From a virus (Duplodnaviria; Caudoviricetes), in IMG/VR virus record IMGVR_UViG_3300028024_000011, positions 1 through 57,620 of that record: a stretch of DNA of 57,620 nt; one strand, written 5' to 3'. Shown here piece by piece: positions 40,114-50,414 of the stretch (position 1 is its first letter; the number at the start of each line of letters is the position of its first letter). The position numbers were made by a program, and so were the translations under genes. The notes under the pieces were generated by a model, which was not told the DNA's origin, did no database searches, and saw nothing but the letters and a program-made list of their open reading frames with translations.

Positions 40114-40661
40114 GTCTGACTCCGTTTCTTCGGTAGGATCCGGCCATCGCTCGGTGCCGGTGCTTTCGGGAAACCCTCGAAGGGTCGGTATCGTGCCAGG
40201 ATGGCGACGTACCGTTCTACAAATCCTTTCACGGTCTCGTCACGCTCGGCCCGTAGCGCCTCGATCTCGGCGTACAACACCGGGTCATCATGATAGAATT
40301 TGTTGGTATCGCTGTTACCGATCAGGTCGCCGCTTTCACTACGATACCGCTCGTGTCCGTCCTGTGTGACGACTTCCACAACCCGGTGACGCCGCGGTAG
40401 TTCGAGCTTACGCGCGCTCTCTTCCCTGACTGTGTTGTGGTACGCGCCTTCACGTACGCGGCTGTCCAACCACCACGGCAACGAGACGAGCGCGACCGGA
40501 TCGACAGCAAGCCGGCCGATCAAGCGCCGAAGCTCGGCCAGCGCCTTACGTCTGACGATCTTCTGACCTACCCTTGCCATAAACGAGCCGGACTCAGTGT
40601 CGAGATAGATGTCTATCCCGTTGAACTGTTCGACCTTCGTCCCGGCTAGGTAGGTGCGCAT
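40110..40661 (-). CDS. Hypothetical protein (183 aa)
   Basis: GAGG RBS immediately after periodic tract 3. Confidence 0.7.
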   Translation of the reverse strand: MRTYLAGTKVEQFNGIDIYLDTESGSFMARVGQKIVRRKALAELRRLIGRLAVDPVALVSLPWWLDSRVREGAYHNTVREESARKLELPRRHRVVEVVTQDGHERYRSESGDLIGNSDTNKFYHDDPVLYAEIEALRAERDETVKGFVERYVAILARYRPFEGFPKAPAPSDGRILPKKRSQT

Positions 40662-40676
40662 CGTCTCGTTACCTCT

Positions 40677-41050
40677 GTGTGGCTGCCCGGTTGCACGTTT
40701 GTGCGGTTGTCCCGCGAGTGACTATGTTGGACGGGTTGTACGTTTGTGATGGCGGATGGTTGACCGTTTGTCCGTTTGTCTGAATCGCCGTTGTGGCCGT
40801 GCACACGTCCGGGGATCTGATTTTGTCGGATGGTCGGCTGTTCGTACGATCGTTTGCTATGTCGGATGGCTGGCCGTACGATGATCGCGGCAGAACGGAT
40901 GTGCGTACGTTCGGTCGCGTTGACGGTGGTACGCCGGCATGTTCGATCGGATGTTATCGCGCTCGTTTGTGCGTGCGGTCGGCTCGGCCACGATGGTAGC
41001 ACGACAGCACGGGATGTGTCGTTCGCGTGTAGGTTTGGCACGTTCGGTCA
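40677..41050 (-). ncRNA. 4-nt periodic array, tract 3 (candidate guide RNA array)
   Basis: + strand in-phase tetramers: 9/9 GNNY at 40677-40712; G-first 16/18 at 40714-40785, 13/14 at 40828-40883, 22/24 at 40889-40984. Confidence 0.7.
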
Positions 41051-41070
41051 AGGGCTCGTCCTACAGCCCG

Positions 41071-41616
41071 CTAACTCGCCTGTTCGCCCTCCTGTGCGAC
41101 GGCTTCGGCGTTCGATCGATCGAGTGATACGCGCCGGCCAATCGCCGCGCCCTCGATCACAGCCGAGCTTACGGCCGCCGCGGCTTCGGCGGCAACCGCC
41201 GACTCGTCTATGGTCGGATCGAGCGTGACCAGTAGCGCAACCTGAGAGCGGTACGCGGCCGGGCCCTCGATCGAGAGGTACCGCTGTATCGACATGATCG
41301 TCTCGCGCTTGTGGATGTTGTCGGCGGCCATCATGCGCGACAGCCGGCTGACGTTGACACGGCCGCCGCGCCGATCCGCCGCGAACGAGCGCACACCGTC
41401 CTGCCGAGCCGTCTGTAGGTAGCGCTGTAGCTCGCCCTTGACGTGTGCTCGCTGGAGTGCGTCGCCGCTCGGCTCAATCCTGAGAGTACCGGCGGCTTGC
41501 TCGTTCATCAGCCGCGCCATCAGGTCATCCGGACTCAGGTACAGATCATCATCGATCTGTAGTGCATCGGCTATGGCGATCGGTTCGCCCGTCTCGACGT
41601 CGATGATTCGTAGCAT
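41071..41616 (-). CDS. Hypothetical protein embedded between periodic arrays
   Basis: AGGGGG RBS; helical, possible HTH at GRVNVSRLSRMM. Confidence 0.7.
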   Translation of the reverse strand: MLRIIDVETGEPIAIADALQIDDDLYLSPDDLMARLMNEQAAGTLRIEPSGDALQRAHVKGELQRYLQTARQDGVRSFAADRRGGRVNVSRLSRMMAADNIHKRETIMSIQRYLSIEGPAAYRSQVALLVTLDPTIDESAVAAEAAAAVSSAVIEGAAIGRRVSLDRSNAEAVAQEGEQAS

Positions 41617-41638
41617 ATATCCCCCTGGTGGTTTAGAT

Positions 41639-41662
41639 GCCCCGGCGATTGCTCGCCGGGGC
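41639..41662 (-). terminator. Hairpin with GCAA tetraloop at 3' end of tract 2b
   Basis: 10-bp perfect stem; loop reads GCAA (GNRA) on minus. Confidence 0.65.
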
Positions 41663-42000
41663 TTCGTTCTTTTGTTCGACCGCGCCCTCGGTAAGCCGCT
41701 CGGATGACTGCTCAGCGGCTAGAGTGGGTGATTGCCCGTCCGGTAGGGTGCTCGTGTGTGCGTTCACTCGCCGCGCCCGGCGATCGTCAGGGCCGGGACT
41801 CGGATACTGGCGGCTTTCTCGGTTCGTTTGCGCGCGATCATGATCGCATGTCTGAATGAACATCGGCCCGCGCGATCAGATAACGGTTCGTTCGGACGGA
41901 TGCGAGTCGGTATCGGGGGAAAGATCGATAGGTGCGTATGGCTGGCTGTTCGCCAGAATGATCGAGACGCGCCCGTCGTCATTGGCGCTACTCAGTTGTG
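41663..42000 (-). ncRNA. 4-nt periodic array, tract 2b
   Basis: G at 22/27 in-phase positions 41666-41770 (12 consecutive 41718-41762); further runs at 41842-41913 and 41932-41967. Confidence 0.7.
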
Positions 42001-42002
42001 GT

Positions 42003-42034
42003 GCCCGGCTGGCCGTATCAGGTACCAGCCGGGC
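42003..42034 (-). other. Hairpin separating tracts 2a and 2b
   Basis: GCCCGGCTGG-N12-CCAGCCGGGC. Confidence 0.6.
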
Positions 42035-42059
42035 TATGGCAATGTTGTGGGGTTCTGGG

Positions 42060-42379
42060 GTTCGTCGCTCGTGAGCCGGTACGCTCGTTCGTCCGGAAGA
42101 GTAGGCGCTTGTTCGCTAGCATGCACGTCGGCTTGTTCGCCTACCTGCAAGTACGATCGTTCAGTTACCTTATACGGCCGTCTGATCGTTCGTTCGCCCG
42201 TCTGGTGTCAGGGCCGATGATTCGCCCGTCCTGTCGATAGCACGGCTGTGCGGACGTACTAGAGTCTTCGAGGTTGCAAGGCTACGCTGTCGACCGTCCG
42301 GACGCTTGCACGTACGCTATCGCGTGTGCCGGATTGTTCGTGAGCCACGCGCGTTCGTCAGCGTGCATGCTCGGGTGAA
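42060..42379 (-). ncRNA. 4-nt periodic array, tract 2a
   Basis: 22/24 G-first tetramers at 42067-42162; at 42176-42347, 35/43 begin with G and 32/43 end in C/T in a single phase. Confidence 0.75.
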
Positions 42380-43420
42380 CTAGCCGGCGCCGTTGACTCG
42401 ACGGACGCTGCCCACCACACGGGCGCGCGGGTCAACCTCAGCCGCGCCCACCGGTAGCGCCGCGTAGACCGCTCGCTCGGGTGTTGGTTCGTTCGTCGGT
42501 CGGCTCGTGCTGGCGCTCGTTTGAACGCTCGCGGTGACGCTCGGCGCGGTCGGGTACGGCCAGACCTCTTTACCGTCCACCACGAGACTGTGACAGATCA
42601 CGAGTCCCCAGTTGCCACCCTTGCCCATGCCGGCCGCGCTGATGCCGGTCCGTTCGACCTGATCGAACAGGCGCACGAGGTATGACGTCGAGAAGTGCGA
42701 CAGCGGCACCGTCATATGCAGCGTGCTCACGACATCACAGATGGACTCGTGGATGATCTCGCCCACAGCCTGACCGCGGACGTTGGTCGGTCGACGGACG
42801 GACTTGCCGATCACGGTCTCCGGCGGAAACACGATCGGGCCAACGCCGACATGGGACCATGCCACGTCGGGCAGCGTGCGACGGACACCGCCACGATCGA
42901 TCGTAATGGTTGAGTCCATCTGATCAGCGCTTTTCATCAGCGCGACGCGAATCCATCCACCCCAGATCATCGGGCCGCCGGGCTCGATAAACCGCGTCTT
43001 GTCGCTCGGGTTGCGCATGCGCGCTTTCAGACGCGGAAAGAACGCGATGCCCTGCTCGCCGGGCTCCGTGATCGGCCCGAGCGTTGCCGTCACCCATTCC
43101 AGCGTGGCGACCACCGGCGCGTACTGCGCGTATGGCGCCACGTAGCGAGACTCTAGCTTCGCTTGCATGTCTCCGAGCGAGCTACGGCCGTTCGCCGTGA
43201 TCTGCCAGCCGGACTCGGCATTGCGCCGCGTGAGCTTGCCGTCACGGTCAAGCACGATGATCTGACGCTCAATCTGCGTACGGAGGCGCTTCGCGTCCGC
43301 TTCGTCGTCGGGCTGATGCAGCGCCGCGACATTCTCGACAACCTCCGTCGTCATCAGTTCGCCGGACTCGGCAACCGTCGTGATGATTGCCAGTTGAATC
43401 ACGTTATTGTTGATCGCCAC
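42380..43420 (-). CDS. Winged-helix + RAMP (Cas7-like) fusion protein
   Basis: N-term wHTH-like (..LDRDGKLTR..GWQITANGR); RAMP-like motif order ATLEWVTATLG / FPR / PMIWGGWIRVALMKSA / IHESI / G-rich loop GISAAGMGKGGNWGLV; GTG start, AGGGG RBS. Confidence 0.65.
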   Translation of the reverse strand: MAINNNVIQLAIITTVAESGELMTTEVVENVAALHQPDDEADAKRLRTQIERQIIVLDRDGKLTRRNAESGWQITANGRSSLGDMQAKLESRYVAPYAQYAPVVATLEWVTATLGPITEPGEQGIAFFPRLKARMRNPSDKTRFIEPGGPMIWGGWIRVALMKSADQMDSTITIDRGGVRRTLPDVAWSHVGVGPIVFPPETVIGKSVRRPTNVRGQAVGEIIHESICDVVSTLHMTVPLSHFSTSYLVRLFDQVERTGISAAGMGKGGNWGLVICHSLVVDGKEVWPYPTAPSVTASVQTSASTSRPTNEPTPERAVYAALPVGAAEVDPRARVVGSVRRVNGAG

Positions 43421-43447
43421 GTGTGTACCCCTGTCTTCGTGTGTGAT

Positions 43448-43488
43448 GCCCGTAGCCGCGGAAGGGTAGGCTACTCACGGCTACGGGC
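43448..43488 (-). other. Hairpin at 3' end of tract 1, before the RAMP RBS
   Basis: GCCCGTAGCCG...CGGCTACGGGC 11-bp stem. Confidence 0.6.
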
Positions 43489-43499
43489 TCCTGTGCAAT

Positions 43500-43740
43500 A
43501 TCGCCGGTCTGATCACTGGCCGTAGGCGGCCCCCTGCACCTAGTCTGTGAGCGGATCACCTGACGTACTCCCCGCGCGGTTGCGCGATCGTATGTGTAAC
43601 TGTATGGTCGGCTGCCGTGTCGTGTGAAAAGAGCGCTGGTATGTGATGTCGTGCGGTCGTTGGGCCGCTACTACGAGTGCTGGTCTGTACGTGTGTCGGG
43701 CTGTACGTTCGTGTTGCCGTGCGTACGTGCGTACGGCGGT
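43500..43740 (-). ncRNA. 4-nt periodic array, tract 1
   Basis: 12/14 G-first tetramers at 43574-43629; 15/16 at 43683-43746. Confidence 0.7.
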
Positions 43741-45215
43741 TAGCTACCTCGCCCCGATCGCGCCGGCCGTCGTCCGGACGCGCCGGGCTTCGGTACCGCG
43801 TTCACAGCCGCCGGCCGCGTCGCCGCCGGACGTAGGGTACGGGCCGCCTGACGCTTTGCCGTCAGATCGCGGGCCACGGCCGCCTGATCAACGACCACCG
43901 GCGACGCGTCAACGGTCCTGGTCTGCTCGCCGGCTTCGGTGTCTTCGTCGCCGGCTTCGGCCAGTTGCGCAAGCTCGGCCGCGTCGGCTGCCGCGTCCGC
44001 TTCCTCGCGATCGATTTCCTCTTGCCGCAAACGCTCGGCTACGTCGTCGTCTTCGTCGTCGTCTTCGTCGTCGGATGCCGCTGAGTCGTCCTCAGCGTCG
44101 TCTGGCGCGGCTTCGTCGTCCTCGGCGGCCTCCGGCTCGTCTTCGGCCGTCTCGGGCACCGTAACACGCTCCGGCTCGCCTTGCTCGGCCATGTACTCGG
44201 CCAGTCGCCCGAGATAGTCGTGAGCGGCCAGCACGTTCGCTTCGATCTCGCTGTACGGCAGTGGCGCCCCGGTGTCCGGGAACATCACGTCAGCCCAGAC
44301 GGTTTCAATCGTGACGGTCTGACGAAGCTCCGCGAGCCGCATAATGGCGTCAAGCACGGCCGCGCCGTTCGCCGGGCCGGTCCGATCGGATGGGCTGATG
44401 ATCAGGTCCGGCTGCACTGACGCGCTGGCGTCCTCGATCGGTGCCGCGCCGGTACACGCCGGGCATGTTTCAAGATCCATTACCCAATGACGGACGCACG
44501 ATGGGCAGTGCCACGCCATGACCGGGTAGTACGCTTCGCACTCTTCGGACGCACACTCCCAGTCGTCATTAGAGATGGGCCGCGTCTCTGGGATGACCTC
44601 ACCTTCGTACGTGCCACTCGGAGCTACGCGAGCGGCCGGCGCGGTACCGTTCGATCGTGGCCGCGCCACGTCGGCCGGGGCGATGGTGTCAATGTTGCCG
44701 GTACCGGCCTTGATTTCGCGGACGATCGCGGTCAACTCGGTTGCGCTGAATCCGTCCGCGATAGCCCGATCGAGCAGTTTATCCGCCTGATCGTCCGGCA
44801 GCGATGACACGGCCCGGTGATGCGTCCACGTCAGTTCTACCCGTCGACGCTCAGGCGGAAACTTCGCGGCCACGCTCACGATGTTGCGCAGTGAGCCCGG
44901 ATCGAGTCCGAACGCGTCGAGCGCTTGCGCGTACTTCTGGCCGTAGCGCTTTTCGCCGGCGTTGAGCAAGTCGCCTTGCCAGAACCGGGAGACCTCGCGC
45001 AGTTGACCGACTGTCTCGGTAACCTCGTTCCAGTCCTCGATAGAGAGTCGCGACGGGATGATCGCCGCGGTACGCGTGAACTGAATGCGCTTCAGCGTCA
45101 TGATAGGCGTGTCATCGCGGGCCGCGATAGCTGTGGTCGCCGGCGCTTCGTCCGCTGTCTCGGGTGCCACCGGCGCGCTGTCGTCGGCTGCCGTCTTGTT
45201 CGCTGACTTTGGCAT
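43740..45215 (-). CDS. LmbU-family-like DNA-binding protein with Zn finger and acidic tail
   Basis: FWQGDLL..GE.RYG.KY.QA, LRNIVSVA.KFP.ERRR.ELTW.HH.AV..L; C....C/CPSC/CPAC; start MPKSAN with GGAAGG RBS. Confidence 0.75.
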   Translation of the reverse strand: MPKSANKTAADDSAPVAPETADEAPATTAIAARDDTPIMTLKRIQFTRTAAIIPSRLSIEDWNEVTETVGQLREVSRFWQGDLLNAGEKRYGQKYAQALDAFGLDPGSLRNIVSVAAKFPPERRRVELTWTHHRAVSSLPDDQADKLLDRAIADGFSATELTAIVREIKAGTGNIDTIAPADVARPRSNGTAPAARVAPSGTYEGEVIPETRPISNDDWECASEECEAYYPVMAWHCPSCVRHWVMDLETCPACTGAAPIEDASASVQPDLIISPSDRTGPANGAAVLDAIMRLAELRQTVTIETVWADVMFPDTGAPLPYSEIEANVLAAHDYLGRLAEYMAEQGEPERVTVPETAEDEPEAAEDDEAAPDDAEDDSAASDDEDDDEDDDVAERLRQEEIDREEADAAADAAELAQLAEAGDEDTEAGEQTRTVDASPVVVDQAAVARDLTAKRQAARTLRPAATRPAAVNAVPKPGASGRRPARSGRGS

Positions 45216-45216
45216 G

Positions 45217-45834
45217 TTAGTACCTTCCGTGTTCGTTCGTGTGTGAAATGTCATCCTGAGATGACATTTCACCGCCGCGCATCGTGCCGAATTCTCGTTC
45301 GCTCAGTAGTGCTAACTCGGCTAGCGCGGTCATGGATCGGCATAGCCCATCCACATAGACGTTGTATTCGCTGTACCCGTCCTGACTGATATCCTCGCCC
45401 CGGCTTGCCCTCTCTTTCTGCTCCGCGAGCTTGCGCTGTATTGGGTGGCCGTGTAGGTGCTGCCACGCAGTGACCGCGCCACGACGGCGTAGCTGTCGGT
45501 TCTGACGGATGCGCCAATCAGCCGGGATGCTGCGCAGTGAGCTACGGCTATCCGTCCACCAGCCATAGGCTACTCGCGAGTCCGTCCAGACCGTGACATG
45601 CTCGGTGTCTCCGAGATGTTCCAGTCCGTCGAGAATCGCGTAGTACTCGGCCTGATTGTTCGTGCCCTCGGGCCAGCCGACATCGGGGCGGATGGGTAGC
45701 TCGCTGGCCCGGATCCATCCGCAACGCTCGGCCACAATCTCGCCGGACTCGACGCGGCACCACGCCCACGTGATGGCTTGCCGGGTCGGATTCCGCCCGA
45801 GCAAACCGCCATCCGTGTACAGCGCAATCGCCAC
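45217..45834 (-). CDS. RNase HI-like protein
   Basis: LYTDGG, TNNQAEY.AI..GL, VWTDS, N.YVD catalytic motif set. Confidence 0.85.
   Translation of the reverse strand: MAIALYTDGGLLGRNPTRQAITWAWCRVESGEIVAERCGWIRASELPIRPDVGWPEGTNNQAEYYAILDGLEHLGDTEHVTVWTDSRVAYGWWTDSRSSLRSIPADWRIRQNRQLRRRGAVTAWQHLHGHPIQRKLAEQKERASRGEDISQDGYSEYNVYVDGLCRSMTALAELALLSEREFGTMRGGEMSSQDDISHTNEHGRY
45243..45272. promoter_or_regulatory. Palindrome copy 10
   Basis: GTGAAATGTCATC-CTGA-GATGACATTTCAC, about 30 bp upstream of the LmbU-like start. Confidence 0.85.
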
Positions 45835-48098: not shown

Positions 48099-48118
48099 TT
48101 GTCATCCTGAGATGACAA
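48099..48118. promoter_or_regulatory. Palindrome copy 11
   Basis: TTGTCATC-CTGA-GATGACAA overlapping the helicase stop. Confidence 0.8.
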
Positions 48119-50414
48119 AGAACCGCGCAACGTCGTCAATCTCGCCAGTGATTGGCGCGTCGGGCAGTGCCGACAGAATCGAGGCGCCGTAGCCGTTACT
48201 CCGTAGACGGCCGTCTAGGATGGCCATCACGGCGCGATCCGAACCTGAGCGGATACCGCGGCCGTATGCCTGTTTTAGCGCGATCGTCGCTTGTGGGATG
48301 CTCAGGAGACGGAAACTCGCACGCGGGCTGTACTTGCGGTCAAGCTCGGCGCACTGCGCGGCGAACACCGGATCAGACGGCGGTGTGAACGGTAGCCCGC
48401 TGATAACTACCAGACTTAGCGCCTCGCCTTGAATGTCGACGCCTTCCCAGAACGATTTTACGCCAAACAGGACGCTCGGCCGTTCGCGAAACCGGCGCAC
48501 TAGTTCGGTCTGTGGCGCCTCGCCTTGCCGTAGTACCTGAATGCCGACAGCCTCGAAGTCAGCCCGCGTCGCCTTGAGTACCGAGTCTAGGACCGTGTTC
48601 GACGTGAACAACGCGAACGCACGGCCACCGCTGATCGTGATCAGCCGCCGGTACTCAGCCGCCAACCGATCGAGGTACGCGGCCCATGCCGCCGGATCCT
48701 TCCGCGCTACCGTCGAGTTGAACGCTGCCGCGTCGAGCGGCACGTACGTCAGCGCGTTGTGTCGGTAGTCGAACGGGCTGCCGACGATCAGACCGGGCCG
48801 GCTCGGCAGATCGTAGTCGAGCCCAACCCGTTCGCGCCAGAATCGAAGATCCTGCCCACCCATGCTGTTTGACGTGGCGATCGTCGCGGACACGGCAATC
48901 ACGGTCAGCGGCAGCCGCGCCTGAGCGTTACCCTTGCGGTCGAATGGCCGATAGAAACTTGCCGTCCACAGCGACGAACGCAACGCCGGCGCCACGTTGA
49001 CCGGCGTTGTTTTGATCGTGGCGCGCTTGCCCGTCTTCGTCTCTTCCACGGCCACGTACCGCACAACGGACGTCGAGCGATCGGTTGCCCCGGATGCCGC
49101 GATCAGATCGCCCAGAAACGCGCTGGCGTAGTTGGCCAGTTTGTCCCACGACTCGCGGTCGGTGTCCTGCAAGCTCGCCGGCGCAAACGTGATCATGTCG
49201 GTTACGAGCGCGTCGAGCGCCAGCATGCTGTCTAGCATCACTTCGTACTCGTCACCTAACCGGGCCGCCGATTCGTTCATGCCGTCGAGTCGTAGAACGT
49301 AGTGAGCCAGCATGGCGTCAAACTCGTTCACCACGCGATCAGTACGCGCCTTCCAGTCCGCTATCAGTGTCGACGCGGTCACGCTCACCGGCTCGCGGCC
49401 GGCCTCGATCGCGTCGAGCAATTCCTGAGCTTGACGTGTCTCGACGTCACGGCTCGCGGCTCGGCGGATCAACGAGTCTACACGCTTGACGACGAACGCC
49501 AGCCGGCCCACCGTAACCTCGCGCGTTAGCGCGTTCAGGGCCTCGTCTTCGAGACGGTGGCACTCGTCAATCACGAGCGTTTCGATGCCGTCCGGCAGAA
49601 TCGACGCCATGTCGTCCGTATCGGCTCGGAGACTGATGTCGCGCATCAGCATAGCCAGATTCGTCACGATCAGATCGGCACCGGCCGCTCGCGCTTTGGC
49701 CTGTTCGGCGTAGCAGCGGTCATAGGCCGGGCACGTCTCGCCTAGACATTCGTCAGACGTCGCCGTGATCTCGGTTTTGATCGCCATTGGTAGCGCGATC
49801 GTAAGTTTCCCGGTATCGCCGTCGCGTGTCTCGTCTGTCCACGTCTGCACGGTTCGCCAGACGCCAGCGTCCTGCCGGTTCTCGAATGTCGGGTTCTCCT
49901 TGAACTGTTCGTACTTGTGCAGACACAGATAGTTCGCGCGGCCCTTCAGTAGCGCGTACGTAAAGCCGCCCGGGATCACGCCGGCCATGCTCAGGAACGG
50001 TATGTCCTTCGATAGCAACTGATCCATCAGCGCGAGCGTCGGCACGGCTACGGCCGTTTTGCGCTTCGAGGCTAGCGCGGCAGCAAGGTAGGCGAACGAC
50101 TTGCCAACGCCGGTACCGGCTTCCGCGGCAAAGTGCTTCCGATCGCGGATGGCTGCCTCGATCGCTAGCGCCAGACGGATCTGTGGCTCACGAGCTTCGT
50201 AGCCCGGGAATCGCTGAGCGATCGTACCGGACGGTCCGATGATTGCCAGCGTCTTCGAGTCCGCGAGCGGCGCCGGCCGCTGTGGGAACGCGTACGTGTT
50301 GATCGTTCGCCCGACACCGTTCAGGATCTCAGCGCGTCGCTTCGGAAGAATCCTGGTCTGTGCTTGCTCTACGCGCTGAGCGCTCGGCCGGCGCGGCATG
50401 ATGCGGTCTGCCAT
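48102..50414 (-). CDS. DinG/YoaA-family ATP-dependent helicase (Fe-S)
   Basis: Q motif YEAREPQ, EAGTGVGKS, KGRANYLC, CLG..CP.Y..CY, DECH, SAT, SFWEGVD, QAYGRGIRS, DGR. Confidence 0.92.
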   Translation of the reverse strand: MADRIMPRRPSAQRVEQAQTRILPKRRAEILNGVGRTINTYAFPQRPAPLADSKTLAIIGPSGTIAQRFPGYEAREPQIRLALAIEAAIRDRKHFAAEAGTGVGKSFAYLAAALASKRKTAVAVPTLALMDQLLSKDIPFLSMAGVIPGGFTYALLKGRANYLCLHKYEQFKENPTFENRQDAGVWRTVQTWTDETRDGDTGKLTIALPMAIKTEITATSDECLGETCPAYDRCYAEQAKARAAGADLIVTNLAMLMRDISLRADTDDMASILPDGIETLVIDECHRLEDEALNALTREVTVGRLAFVVKRVDSLIRRAASRDVETRQAQELLDAIEAGREPVSVTASTLIADWKARTDRVVNEFDAMLAHYVLRLDGMNESAARLGDEYEVMLDSMLALDALVTDMITFAPASLQDTDRESWDKLANYASAFLGDLIAASGATDRSTSVVRYVAVEETKTGKRATIKTTPVNVAPALRSSLWTASFYRPFDRKGNAQARLPLTVIAVSATIATSNSMGGQDLRFWRERVGLDYDLPSRPGLIVGSPFDYRHNALTYVPLDAAAFNSTVARKDPAAWAAYLDRLAAEYRRLITISGGRAFALFTSNTVLDSVLKATRADFEAVGIQVLRQGEAPQTELVRRFRERPSVLFGVKSFWEGVDIQGEALSLVVISGLPFTPPSDPVFAAQCAELDRKYSPRASFRLLSIPQATIALKQAYGRGIRSGSDRAVMAILDGRLRSNGYGASILSALPDAPITGEIDDVARFFVISG

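Follow-up and report, generated by a model that had tools for sequence, protein, structure and literature searches.

A predicted winged-helix–RAMP protein flanked by tetranucleotide arrays in an uncultured soil siphovirus, with likeness to VIPR

What might a protein that joins a winged helix to a Cas7-like domain do in a phage genome in which no CRISPR system was detected? This question is raised by a gene in the IMG/VR virus record IMGVR_UViG_3300028024_000011, a stretch of 57,620 bases (hereafter the window; G+C content ~63%, estimated completeness 66%) from an uncultured soil siphovirus. The gene product is referred to here as wHTH-RAMP, for its predicted winged helix-turn-helix and its resemblance to the repeat-associated mysterious proteins (RAMPs) of CRISPR effectors. 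By a slight balance of probability, we regard it as the protein partner in an RNA-guided viral system that is independent of CRISPR and resembles VIPR, an interpretation that draws on its predicted fold, on the tetranucleotide arrays around its gene and on the recurrence of the whole arrangement in a second virus. The gene is as follows:

42380..43420, minus strand: wHTH-RAMP gene (P0001), 346 amino acids, GTG start, stop codon included (open reading frame list and translation)

The open reading frame (ORF) drawn by the first-pass annotation, which was made from the sequence alone, is real to the base, and 13 relatives of similar length are known. Its start call is supported by an AGGGG motif 8 nt upstream of the start codon and by the relatives, which begin with MAINN, MATTN or MASAN at the matching position. 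The four strings on which the annotation had based its reading are all present in the translation, namely LDRDGKLTR at residues 57-65, WQITANGR at 72-79, PMIWGGWIRVAL at 150-161 and GISAAGMGKGGNWG at 259-272. The family is very small: 5 relatives were found among 5.8 billion clusters, 8 matches at E<=0.001 among 1.84 billion representatives, and one more relative on a second viral contig, L002, in scans of viral sequences. One candidate, P0013, was dropped, being a repeat protein similar to residues 55-90 only. Profile searches with the family added no members, metagenome and genome scans for further loci gave none, the viral scans gave L002 alone, and no paralogue of the gene occurs within the window. 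Across 13 sequences the residues R209, R210, P211, N213, G216, G220, P239, L251, G259, S261, G264, G266, G268, G269 and W271 are invariant, and they cluster in an RRPxN..G...G motif (209-220), at P239 and in a Gly-rich loop (G259-W271).

The fold was predicted with an AlphaFold2 model of residues 1-293 built from 14 sequences, which reached a mean predicted local distance difference test score (pLDDT) of 85.9 and a predicted template modeling score of 0.72; all five models of this run lay between 77.5 and 85.9, and the secondary-structure elements are alike in this run and in an earlier one with 6 sequences. The protein divides into the following parts:

43151..43420, minus strand: winged helix-turn-helix, residues 1-90, with helices at 5-19, 24-35, 40-59 and 76-89 and a wing at 62-74 (AlphaFold2)
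42551..43135, minus strand: predicted RAMP domain with a single RNA recognition motif (RRM), residues 96-290 (model elements, Foldseek, VIA-align)
42605..42646, minus strand: Gly-rich loop GISAAGMGKGGNWG, residues 259-272, between helix-2 and the last strand
42383..42550, minus strand: P/A/S/T-rich tail, residues 291-346, low confidence (pLDDT 22-33 in the first model)

For residues 1-90, a winged helix had been proposed from motifs, and the model bears this out with a three-helix bundle, a recognition helix and a beta wing. In VIA-align comparisons this part matches the winged helices of PadR, VanR, MarR and AphA at Z 10.7-12.0 (root-mean-square deviation, rmsd, 2.4-3.5; 74-96 residues), including PadR 7wjp (Z 12.0, 92 residues, rmsd 3.5) and VanR 5z7b (Z 11.4, 81 residues, rmsd 2.6). 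We are confident of the predicted structure of this part as a PadR/MarR-type winged helix.

The Cas7-like RAMP that had been placed at residues ~100-285 is likewise recovered in the model. Along the chain, b1 (100-109) is followed by a variable insert, by helix-1 (154-167) and by a hairpin (205-227) that holds the invariant RRPxN..G...GE, and then come b3 (231-239), helix-2 (245-258), the Gly-rich loop (259-272) and b4 (274-281). RAMPs of this kind are described as having a single RRM with nothing folded after the Gly-rich loop (PMC3150331, as far as that source was consulted), and the model shows one RRM core with inserts, its first strand and helix-1, a Gly-rich loop before the last strand and only a low-confidence tail beyond b4. 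The first-pass annotation had called the loop terminal; it is present and ends the folded domain, whereas the protein itself continues for ~55 residues. A Foldseek search of the PDB gave 154 matches at E<=1e-3 (best 2.8e-7), and all 34 of the matches listed are CRISPR effector chains, among them Csm3, Cas7 of a type I-B CRISPR-associated transposon, type VII Cas7, type IV-A Csf2, Cmr and Cas7-11. With VIA-align, residues 96-293 match Csm3 (9g9g_D, Z 11.4, 164 of 200 residues, rmsd 4.1; 6ae2, Z 11.2, 154 residues, rmsd 3.4), Csf2 (8rfj_A, Z 11.3, 186 residues) and Cas7-11 (Z 10.9). In a search independent of Foldseek over 48,161 chains, 12 of the best 50 rows cover residues 95-293 and every one is a CRISPR RAMP chain (Z 9.7-11.2), while the other 38 are winged-helix proteins aligned to residues 1-90. 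In addition, a protein named as a RAMP is among the best matches in the viral library BFVD (E 3.8e-5). Residues ~96-290 are, as a predicted structure, confidently a Cas7-group single-RRM RAMP with a Gly-rich loop before its last strand.

Beyond the folded part, the tail ends in a motif (DPRxR-VxG-VR-VNGA) that is conserved in long-form relatives and absent from short forms; in the long forms it closes with ..VGSVRRVNGAG, and one relative, P0012, carries an acidic tail instead. A faint NCBIfam match (E 0.075) links the tail to the encapsulin cargo protein EncB, in its C-terminal part. The tail may be a docking peptide.

The window (a contig that is 66% complete) contains no CRISPR-like repeat family and no cas-specific gene, with cas5, cas6, cas8, cas10 and cas11 all absent, and no CRISPR direct-repeat family of Rfam matches at E<=5 in 40500-43900. 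Of 68 ORFs submitted to PADLOC, just three matched: a DinG helicase, one protein resembling a methyltransferase, and PDC-S07. The helicase (48102-50414, minus strand) suggested a type IV CRISPR link, since it matches the PADLOC model typeIV_DinG (associated) at 1.3e-100. This link was ruled out: the generic YoaA/DinG family of NCBIfam matches far better (7.5e-138) than Csf4 (1e-21), and L002 has no such helicase. The PADLOC name "type IV DinG" is, taken alone, misleading for this gene. Because the window lacks both a CRISPR array and cas-specific genes, a CRISPR frame is not the best fit, and the same holds for the earlier suggestion that the winged helix replaces a large subunit or reader of the protospacer-adjacent motif.

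Known Cas7-group, array-less and orphan Cas-like proteins offer further comparisons. The predicted protein shares with the Cas7 group (Csm3, Cmr4, Csf2, type VII Cas7 and Cas7-11) a single RRM with inserts, helix-1, the Gly-rich loop and the lack of a second RRM, but it has no profile-level sequence match to that group, carries an N-terminal winged helix and neighbors a repeat of 4 nt rather than the 6-nt register kept on a spacer. Type IV-B systems, described as array-less Csf2 filaments on heterogeneous small RNAs (PMC8175902), and the haloarchaeal HRAMP, described as Cas7-like, derived and array-less (PMC8730458), resemble it in having a Cas7-like protein without a CRISPR array, on mobile elements or in derived form. 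Both keep Cas5-, Cas8- or Cas11-like partners that are recognizable by sequence, whereas wHTH-RAMP is encoded by a virus, stands alone and carries a fused winged helix. A third point of comparison is given by the orphan viral anti-CRISPR proteins AcrIB3, AcrIB4 and AcrVIA2, in which a Cas-like protein likewise stands alone in a virus (10.1101/2023.06.24.545427, in the part consulted).

The last of these comparisons corresponds to a distinct explanation, namely that wHTH-RAMP is an anti-CRISPR protein acting by mimicry: the orphan Cas7-like subunit would enter or sponge class 1 complexes or CRISPR RNAs of the host, and the winged helix would be an Aca-like autorepressor. Orphan viral cas homologs are described as acting in this way, with 358 predicted in IMG/VR (10.1101/2023.06.24.545427), anti-CRISPR proteins that bear a helix-turn-helix appear in the literature consulted, and a role as a sponge for small RNAs has been proposed for the array-less Csf2 filament of type IV-B (PMC8175902). 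However, the known mimics are recent captures that lie in anti-defense clusters and resemble host Cas proteins in sequence, whereas wHTH-RAMP is very divergent, has no recognizable sequence homology to a host Cas protein and belongs to a core block with arrays of its own. The family also has strongly conserved motifs of its own and conserved synteny in a core module, and mimicry leaves the 4-nt arrays unexplained. We consider this explanation quite improbable.

The arrays are the second line of evidence. The noncoding stretches around the gene are 319, 763 and 409 nt long, and on the gene strand they carry tandem tetranucleotides with a fixed C-purine dinucleotide (CR) followed by two free bases, together with associated elements:

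43571..43735, minus strand: 5' (CRNN)n arrays, runs of 22 units (17 CR) and 14 units (12 CR)
43628-43599, minus strand: sigma-70-like site between the two 5' array runs (consensus match only)
43448..43488, minus strand: 5' hairpin with 11-bp arms GCCCGTAGCCG / CGGCTACGGGC, separating the 5' arrays from the gene's ribosome-binding site (read by eye, unscored)
41671..42377, minus strand: 3' (CRNN)n arrays, 7 runs of 8-23 units, in all 97 units (77 CR)
41639..41662, minus strand: GC-rich 3' hairpin of 10 bp, directly after the last 3' array and before the ribosome-binding site of the next gene
40674..40981, minus strand: third (CRNN)n arrays, beyond the next gene downstream, 57 units (51 CR) in 4 runs

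The CRNN repeat, which the first-pass annotation named only among its proposed checks, is real as DNA arrays that flank the gene, and this applies to both loci known. In the window, the three noncoding stretches hold 13 runs with 190 units (157 CR), which cover 760 of the 1,491 noncoding bases; these counts come from a scan with a gentler penalty. Under the strict scan, which scores in-phase C-purine-N-N runs and takes those scoring at least 8, the gene strand has such runs only at 40674-40981, 42173-42204 and 43571-43614 and the opposite strand has none, while the maximum score in 30 shuffles was 5-7. The background frequency of CR is 0.18-0.20 (0.20 in the window). Within the window's noncoding stretches a CR is followed by another CR at +4 in 0.32-0.50 of cases against 0.10-0.18 at +5 (0.45 against 0.10 in the 3' arrays), whereas the value at +4 in coding sequence is 0.19-0.22 and a period of 3 appears there instead. 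Over all arrays the corresponding values are 0.32-0.67 at +4 and 0.04-0.18 at +5, a period of 4 rather than 3 or 5. The runs are 5-50 units long and degenerate, with 83-85% CR. The stretch 41617-42379 folds with a z of -2.25. Rfam gives nothing at gathering score over the whole window and only sub-threshold, chance-like matches in 40500-43900, and no tRNA was found in the window. The 3' hairpin was called by a scan as a terminator-like site on the plus strand; no T run follows it on the minus strand.

Two other readings of these stretches were considered. In 41617-42379 there are 13 copies of the pentamer CGAAC where 2 are expected, which suggested a replication origin with iterons; this was dropped because CGAAC arises incidentally from the CGAA units that the 4-nt arrays contain, and in L002 it is found 3 times against 1.2 expected, with no significant enrichment. 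An ORF of 131 amino acids that overlies the third arrays (40646-41041, minus strand) is probably spurious. A frame of 119 amino acids in L002 (10167-10526, plus strand) also overlies (CRNN)n arrays and is probably no gene; both frames are likely to be annotated by a gene caller.

The arrangement recurs in L002, where the homolog is 41% identical to wHTH-RAMP. The L002 arrays lie on the gene strand only and comprise 7 runs with 169 units (144 CR); 50 units stand directly 5' of the homolog and 61 units 3' of it, one run has 44 units (39 CR) and one is a clean 14 of 14. All four array blocks of L002 end between 5 nt inside and 22 nt before a copy of a palindromic hairpin, whereas in the window different hairpins, those at 41639-41662 and 43448-43488, close the arrays. 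Between the two viruses the NN positions have nothing in common, and 41617-42379 does not align with its L002 counterpart. When the 17-kb L002 stretch is compared with the window, only 7 ORF pairs match, including a DnaC-like loader, an LmbU-like gene, wHTH-RAMP and a gene for a protein beginning MLRIID; the latter three lie together in both loci. wHTH-RAMP, the arrays, the hairpins after the arrays and the two neighboring genes thus recur together in 2 of 2 loci.

The closest parallel is VIPR, which was first described in 2026 and from which CRISPR RAMP effectors have been proposed to descend. According to the text of the original report, the phage protein Vipr is a minimal RAMP whose gene lies among long intergenic regions of noncoding RNA, with no CRISPR array; structure revealed it where sequence methods failed. 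Its vrRNAs are described as repeating YNNGG, or another 5-mer, 9-16 times in tandem, it is accompanied by six accessory genes (vap), some of them coding for winged-helix-like DNA binders, and the system silences rival elements transcriptionally, reading the NN bases with a one-base skip (10.64898/2026.04.26.720920). The structural companion, in the portion consulted, describes one Vipr protomer per repeat, with helix-1, thumb and G-loop holding the fixed bases and a G-loop Trp stacked on the fixed guanine (10.64898/2026.04.26.720927). Escherichia phage SUSP1 provides an example, further preprints are available (10.64898/2026.10.15.759431, 10.64898/2026.10.21.760802), and the bioRxiv supplements are said to hold 667 VIPR loci.

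The locus described here resembles VIPR in several respects. It is phage-encoded and centers on a minimal RAMP with a single RRM, a G-loop and a thumb-like hairpin, all as predicted; there is no CRISPR array and no other cas gene; long intergenic stretches of very short repeats, each unit made of a fixed part and two free bases, flank the gene; a structured 3' element follows the arrays; and a DNA-binding partner function would be provided by the fused winged helix and perhaps by the LmbU-like neighbor, which is conserved in both loci. The invariant residues of the hairpin (209-225) and of the G-loop, W271 among them, would parallel the RNA contacts of Vipr as these are described. The defining 5-nt repeat was tested for and is absent, and for that reason the system is best filed as one that may work like VIPR yet is not a member of a described type. 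In place of the separate vap gene, the winged helix is here fused to the RAMP. The texts of the VIPR preprints, as searched, contain no tetranucleotide or fused form, although their supplements could hold such; the word "winged" occurs once in the searched text of the original report, where the legend of fig. S21 deals with predicted Vap structures (10.64898/2026.04.26.720920), and not in that of 10.64898/2026.10.15.759431. No report of a winged-helix–Cas7 fusion appeared in the literature searched.

By analogy with Vipr and its vrRNAs, we infer RNA binding, filament formation and targets for wHTH-RAMP as follows. The arrays would be transcribed with the genes, and the protein would polymerize on the resulting guide RNA with one RAMP protomer per 4-nt unit. 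Helix-1, the thumb-like RRPxN hairpin and the Trp-containing Gly-rich loop would grip the C-purine and expose the two variable bases, so that the filament might read DNA noncontiguously. The winged helix of each protomer would supply a grip on double-stranded DNA, as separate Vap proteins do in the described VIPR types; the idea of the first-pass annotation that every filament subunit brings such a module is a reasonable conjecture. The likely effect would be to silence, at the level of transcription, either selected genes or a competing mobile element. The more specific proposal of a tetranucleotide code, with the C-purine fixed and two bases read by a Vipr/Cas7-like protomer that has its own winged-helix clamp, and with a geometry and skip rule unlike those of 5-nt GGY/NN VIPR, is advanced tentatively, and we would sooner doubt than assert it.

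Several results weigh against this interpretation. The repeat unit is 4 nt (C-purine-N-N) instead of 5 nt (GGY/NN or other 5-mers), and the arrays extend to 50 degenerate units instead of 9-16. The likeness to Vipr is drawn from published descriptions, and a family of 14 sequences offers only two genomic contexts. At the sequence level no link of the protein to any RAMP was found: Pfam gives 0 families for it at E<=10; Pfam, PHROGs, PADLOC and NCBIfam yield no credible family; the RAMP family PF03787 matches nothing in the window at E<=10; and two family-profile searches of PDB sequences at E<=10 gave 0 RAMPs among 1 and 11 weak matches. The weak, sub-threshold Pfam matches obtained across 13 members concern the winged helix only (HTH_12, E 0.027; Mrr_N, E 0.12). 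The Foldseek TM-scores of 0.30-0.55, with rmsd of 3.4-5.5 Å, are modest, and the first model, from 6 sequences, was poor (mean pLDDT 50.3). Finally, a search for targets of the arrays in the window and L002, requiring at least 15 of 16 positions, gave 0, 0 and 1 matching site at skips of 0, 1 and 3, respectively, as in shuffled controls; at a skip of 2 it finds only the DNA of the arrays themselves.

Some of these results could mean that the RAMP resemblance is an artefact, produced by an over-confident model from a shallow alignment or by convergence on a ferredoxin-like fold. Only 14 sequences were available after a poor first model, Z values of ~11 exceed by no large margin the 7-8 regarded as common for the tool, and in the ESM atlas the whole protein has no usable match while a feature search with the RAMP domain alone brings up a RAMP cluster no higher than rank 12, with a score of 0.79. 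However, all five models of the second run scored well above the first and the secondary structure agrees between runs, the matches span nearly whole Csm3 chains with no competition from generic ferredoxin-like proteins, and the Gly-rich loop and helix-1 motifs lie where they are expected. An artefact therefore appears highly improbable.

If the fold is accepted, the protein might still be an ordinary winged-helix transcription factor, whose RRM-like C-terminal domain senses a ligand or oligomerizes and to which the 4-nt periodicity is unrelated. Effector domains at the C-terminus are common among PadR and MarR regulators, the upstream neighbor is also a DNA-binding protein, and RNA binding by wHTH-RAMP is argued from analogy. 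Such a regulator would nevertheless have to accommodate a domain that matches full-length Csm3 and Csf2 down to the position of the Gly-rich loop, and among the best 50 rows no non-RAMP fold covers this domain. The arrays, moreover, occur in the window only around the wHTH-RAMP gene and again beside its homolog in L002. We judge this alternative improbable.

The strongest rival is a cis-acting regulator, in which the protein coats its own (CRNN)n leaders and trailers, or the repeats as DNA, and controls translation, RNA stability, termination or replication, with the NN bases uninformative. The arrays do stand, on the gene strand, in the leaders and trailers of the wHTH-RAMP gene itself and of neighboring genes, and in their length and degeneracy they are unlike discrete guides of 9-16 units. 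The block lies in a replication and regulation module beside the DnaC-like loader and RNase H, it is among the few ORF pairs common to both phage stretches, and no target in trans was found. On the other hand, the target search spanned only the DNA of the two phages themselves (75 kb), and in such DNA published VIPR guides have no matches either. A strict periodicity of two fixed and two free bases over hundreds of bases is required by a guide with one protomer per repeat and exceeds the demands of a plain binding site, and the complete difference of the NN positions between the two phages also speaks against this rival. In our assessment a cis-acting regulator is unlikely, and a VIPR-like guided system remains the preferred reading.

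If that reading is true, the protomer-per-repeat principle would tolerate another register, and a compact single-protein effector would be available to test for programmable DNA binding. A deep lineage invisible at the sequence level would be added to the question of RAMP origins, and the range of such systems would come to include soil phages of high GC content whose hosts are probably actinobacteria. The published VIPR types, in the descriptions consulted, all use 5-nt repeats and a separate accessory protein, against which a 4-nt repeat with a fused winged helix would be new.

Nearly all genes of the window lie on the minus strand. The siphovirus parts comprise an endolysin, a tape measure protein of 2274 amino acids, a major head protein, a protease, a portal and a large terminase, and the replication block contains a methyltransferase-like gene, an AAA_24 protein, the DinG/YoaA-type helicase, the DnaC-like loader and RNase H. 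A phage collection gave no match to the window DNA or to the wHTH-RAMP protein, pointing to the lack of a close isolated phage. One sequencing run contains the window DNA, a soil metagenome that is its probable source, and no RNA run is listed for it. The genes on either side of wHTH-RAMP are as follows:

43740..45272, minus strand: LmbU-family-like protein, upstream neighbor and candidate accessory protein (NCBIfam NF038070, E 7.7e-24, 84.6 bits against a cutoff of 125)
41071..41616, minus strand: MLRIID protein, downstream neighbor, 181 amino acids, 56% identical to L002:9530-10045

The LmbU-like protein has an LmbU-family-like DNA-binding domain at residues 68-190, a Cys-rich ribbon at ~238-262, a long acidic stretch and a basic end; its homolog occupies the same place in L002 (E 1e-31). 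It found nothing in a PDB sequence search, and the MLRIID protein has no family or PDB match. The listed start of the LmbU-like gene overlaps a palindrome, and the methionine of MPKSANK, 19 codons in, is a possible real start.

An intergenic palindrome whose core, GTCAT-N6-ATGAC, is common to both viruses has 13 copies in the window (shuffle mean 0.15), mostly at gene junctions (1604, 5208, 10383, 17352, 24629, 27847, 31778, 35995, 37929, 45250, 48101, 52954 and 57477), and none of these copies flanks the arrays. L002 has 8 copies in 17 kb (2006, 5756, 7741, 9484, 10517, 12224, 12658 and 16184; shuffle mean 0.035), 4 of which follow (CRNN)n arrays. A further motif, CCGTTACCACACACGCAA, is found six times in the window (126, 1007, 1563, 45906, 50457 and 54636); on the gene strand it resembles TTGCGT-N17-TAT, lies upstream of gene blocks and may represent a family of phage promoters.

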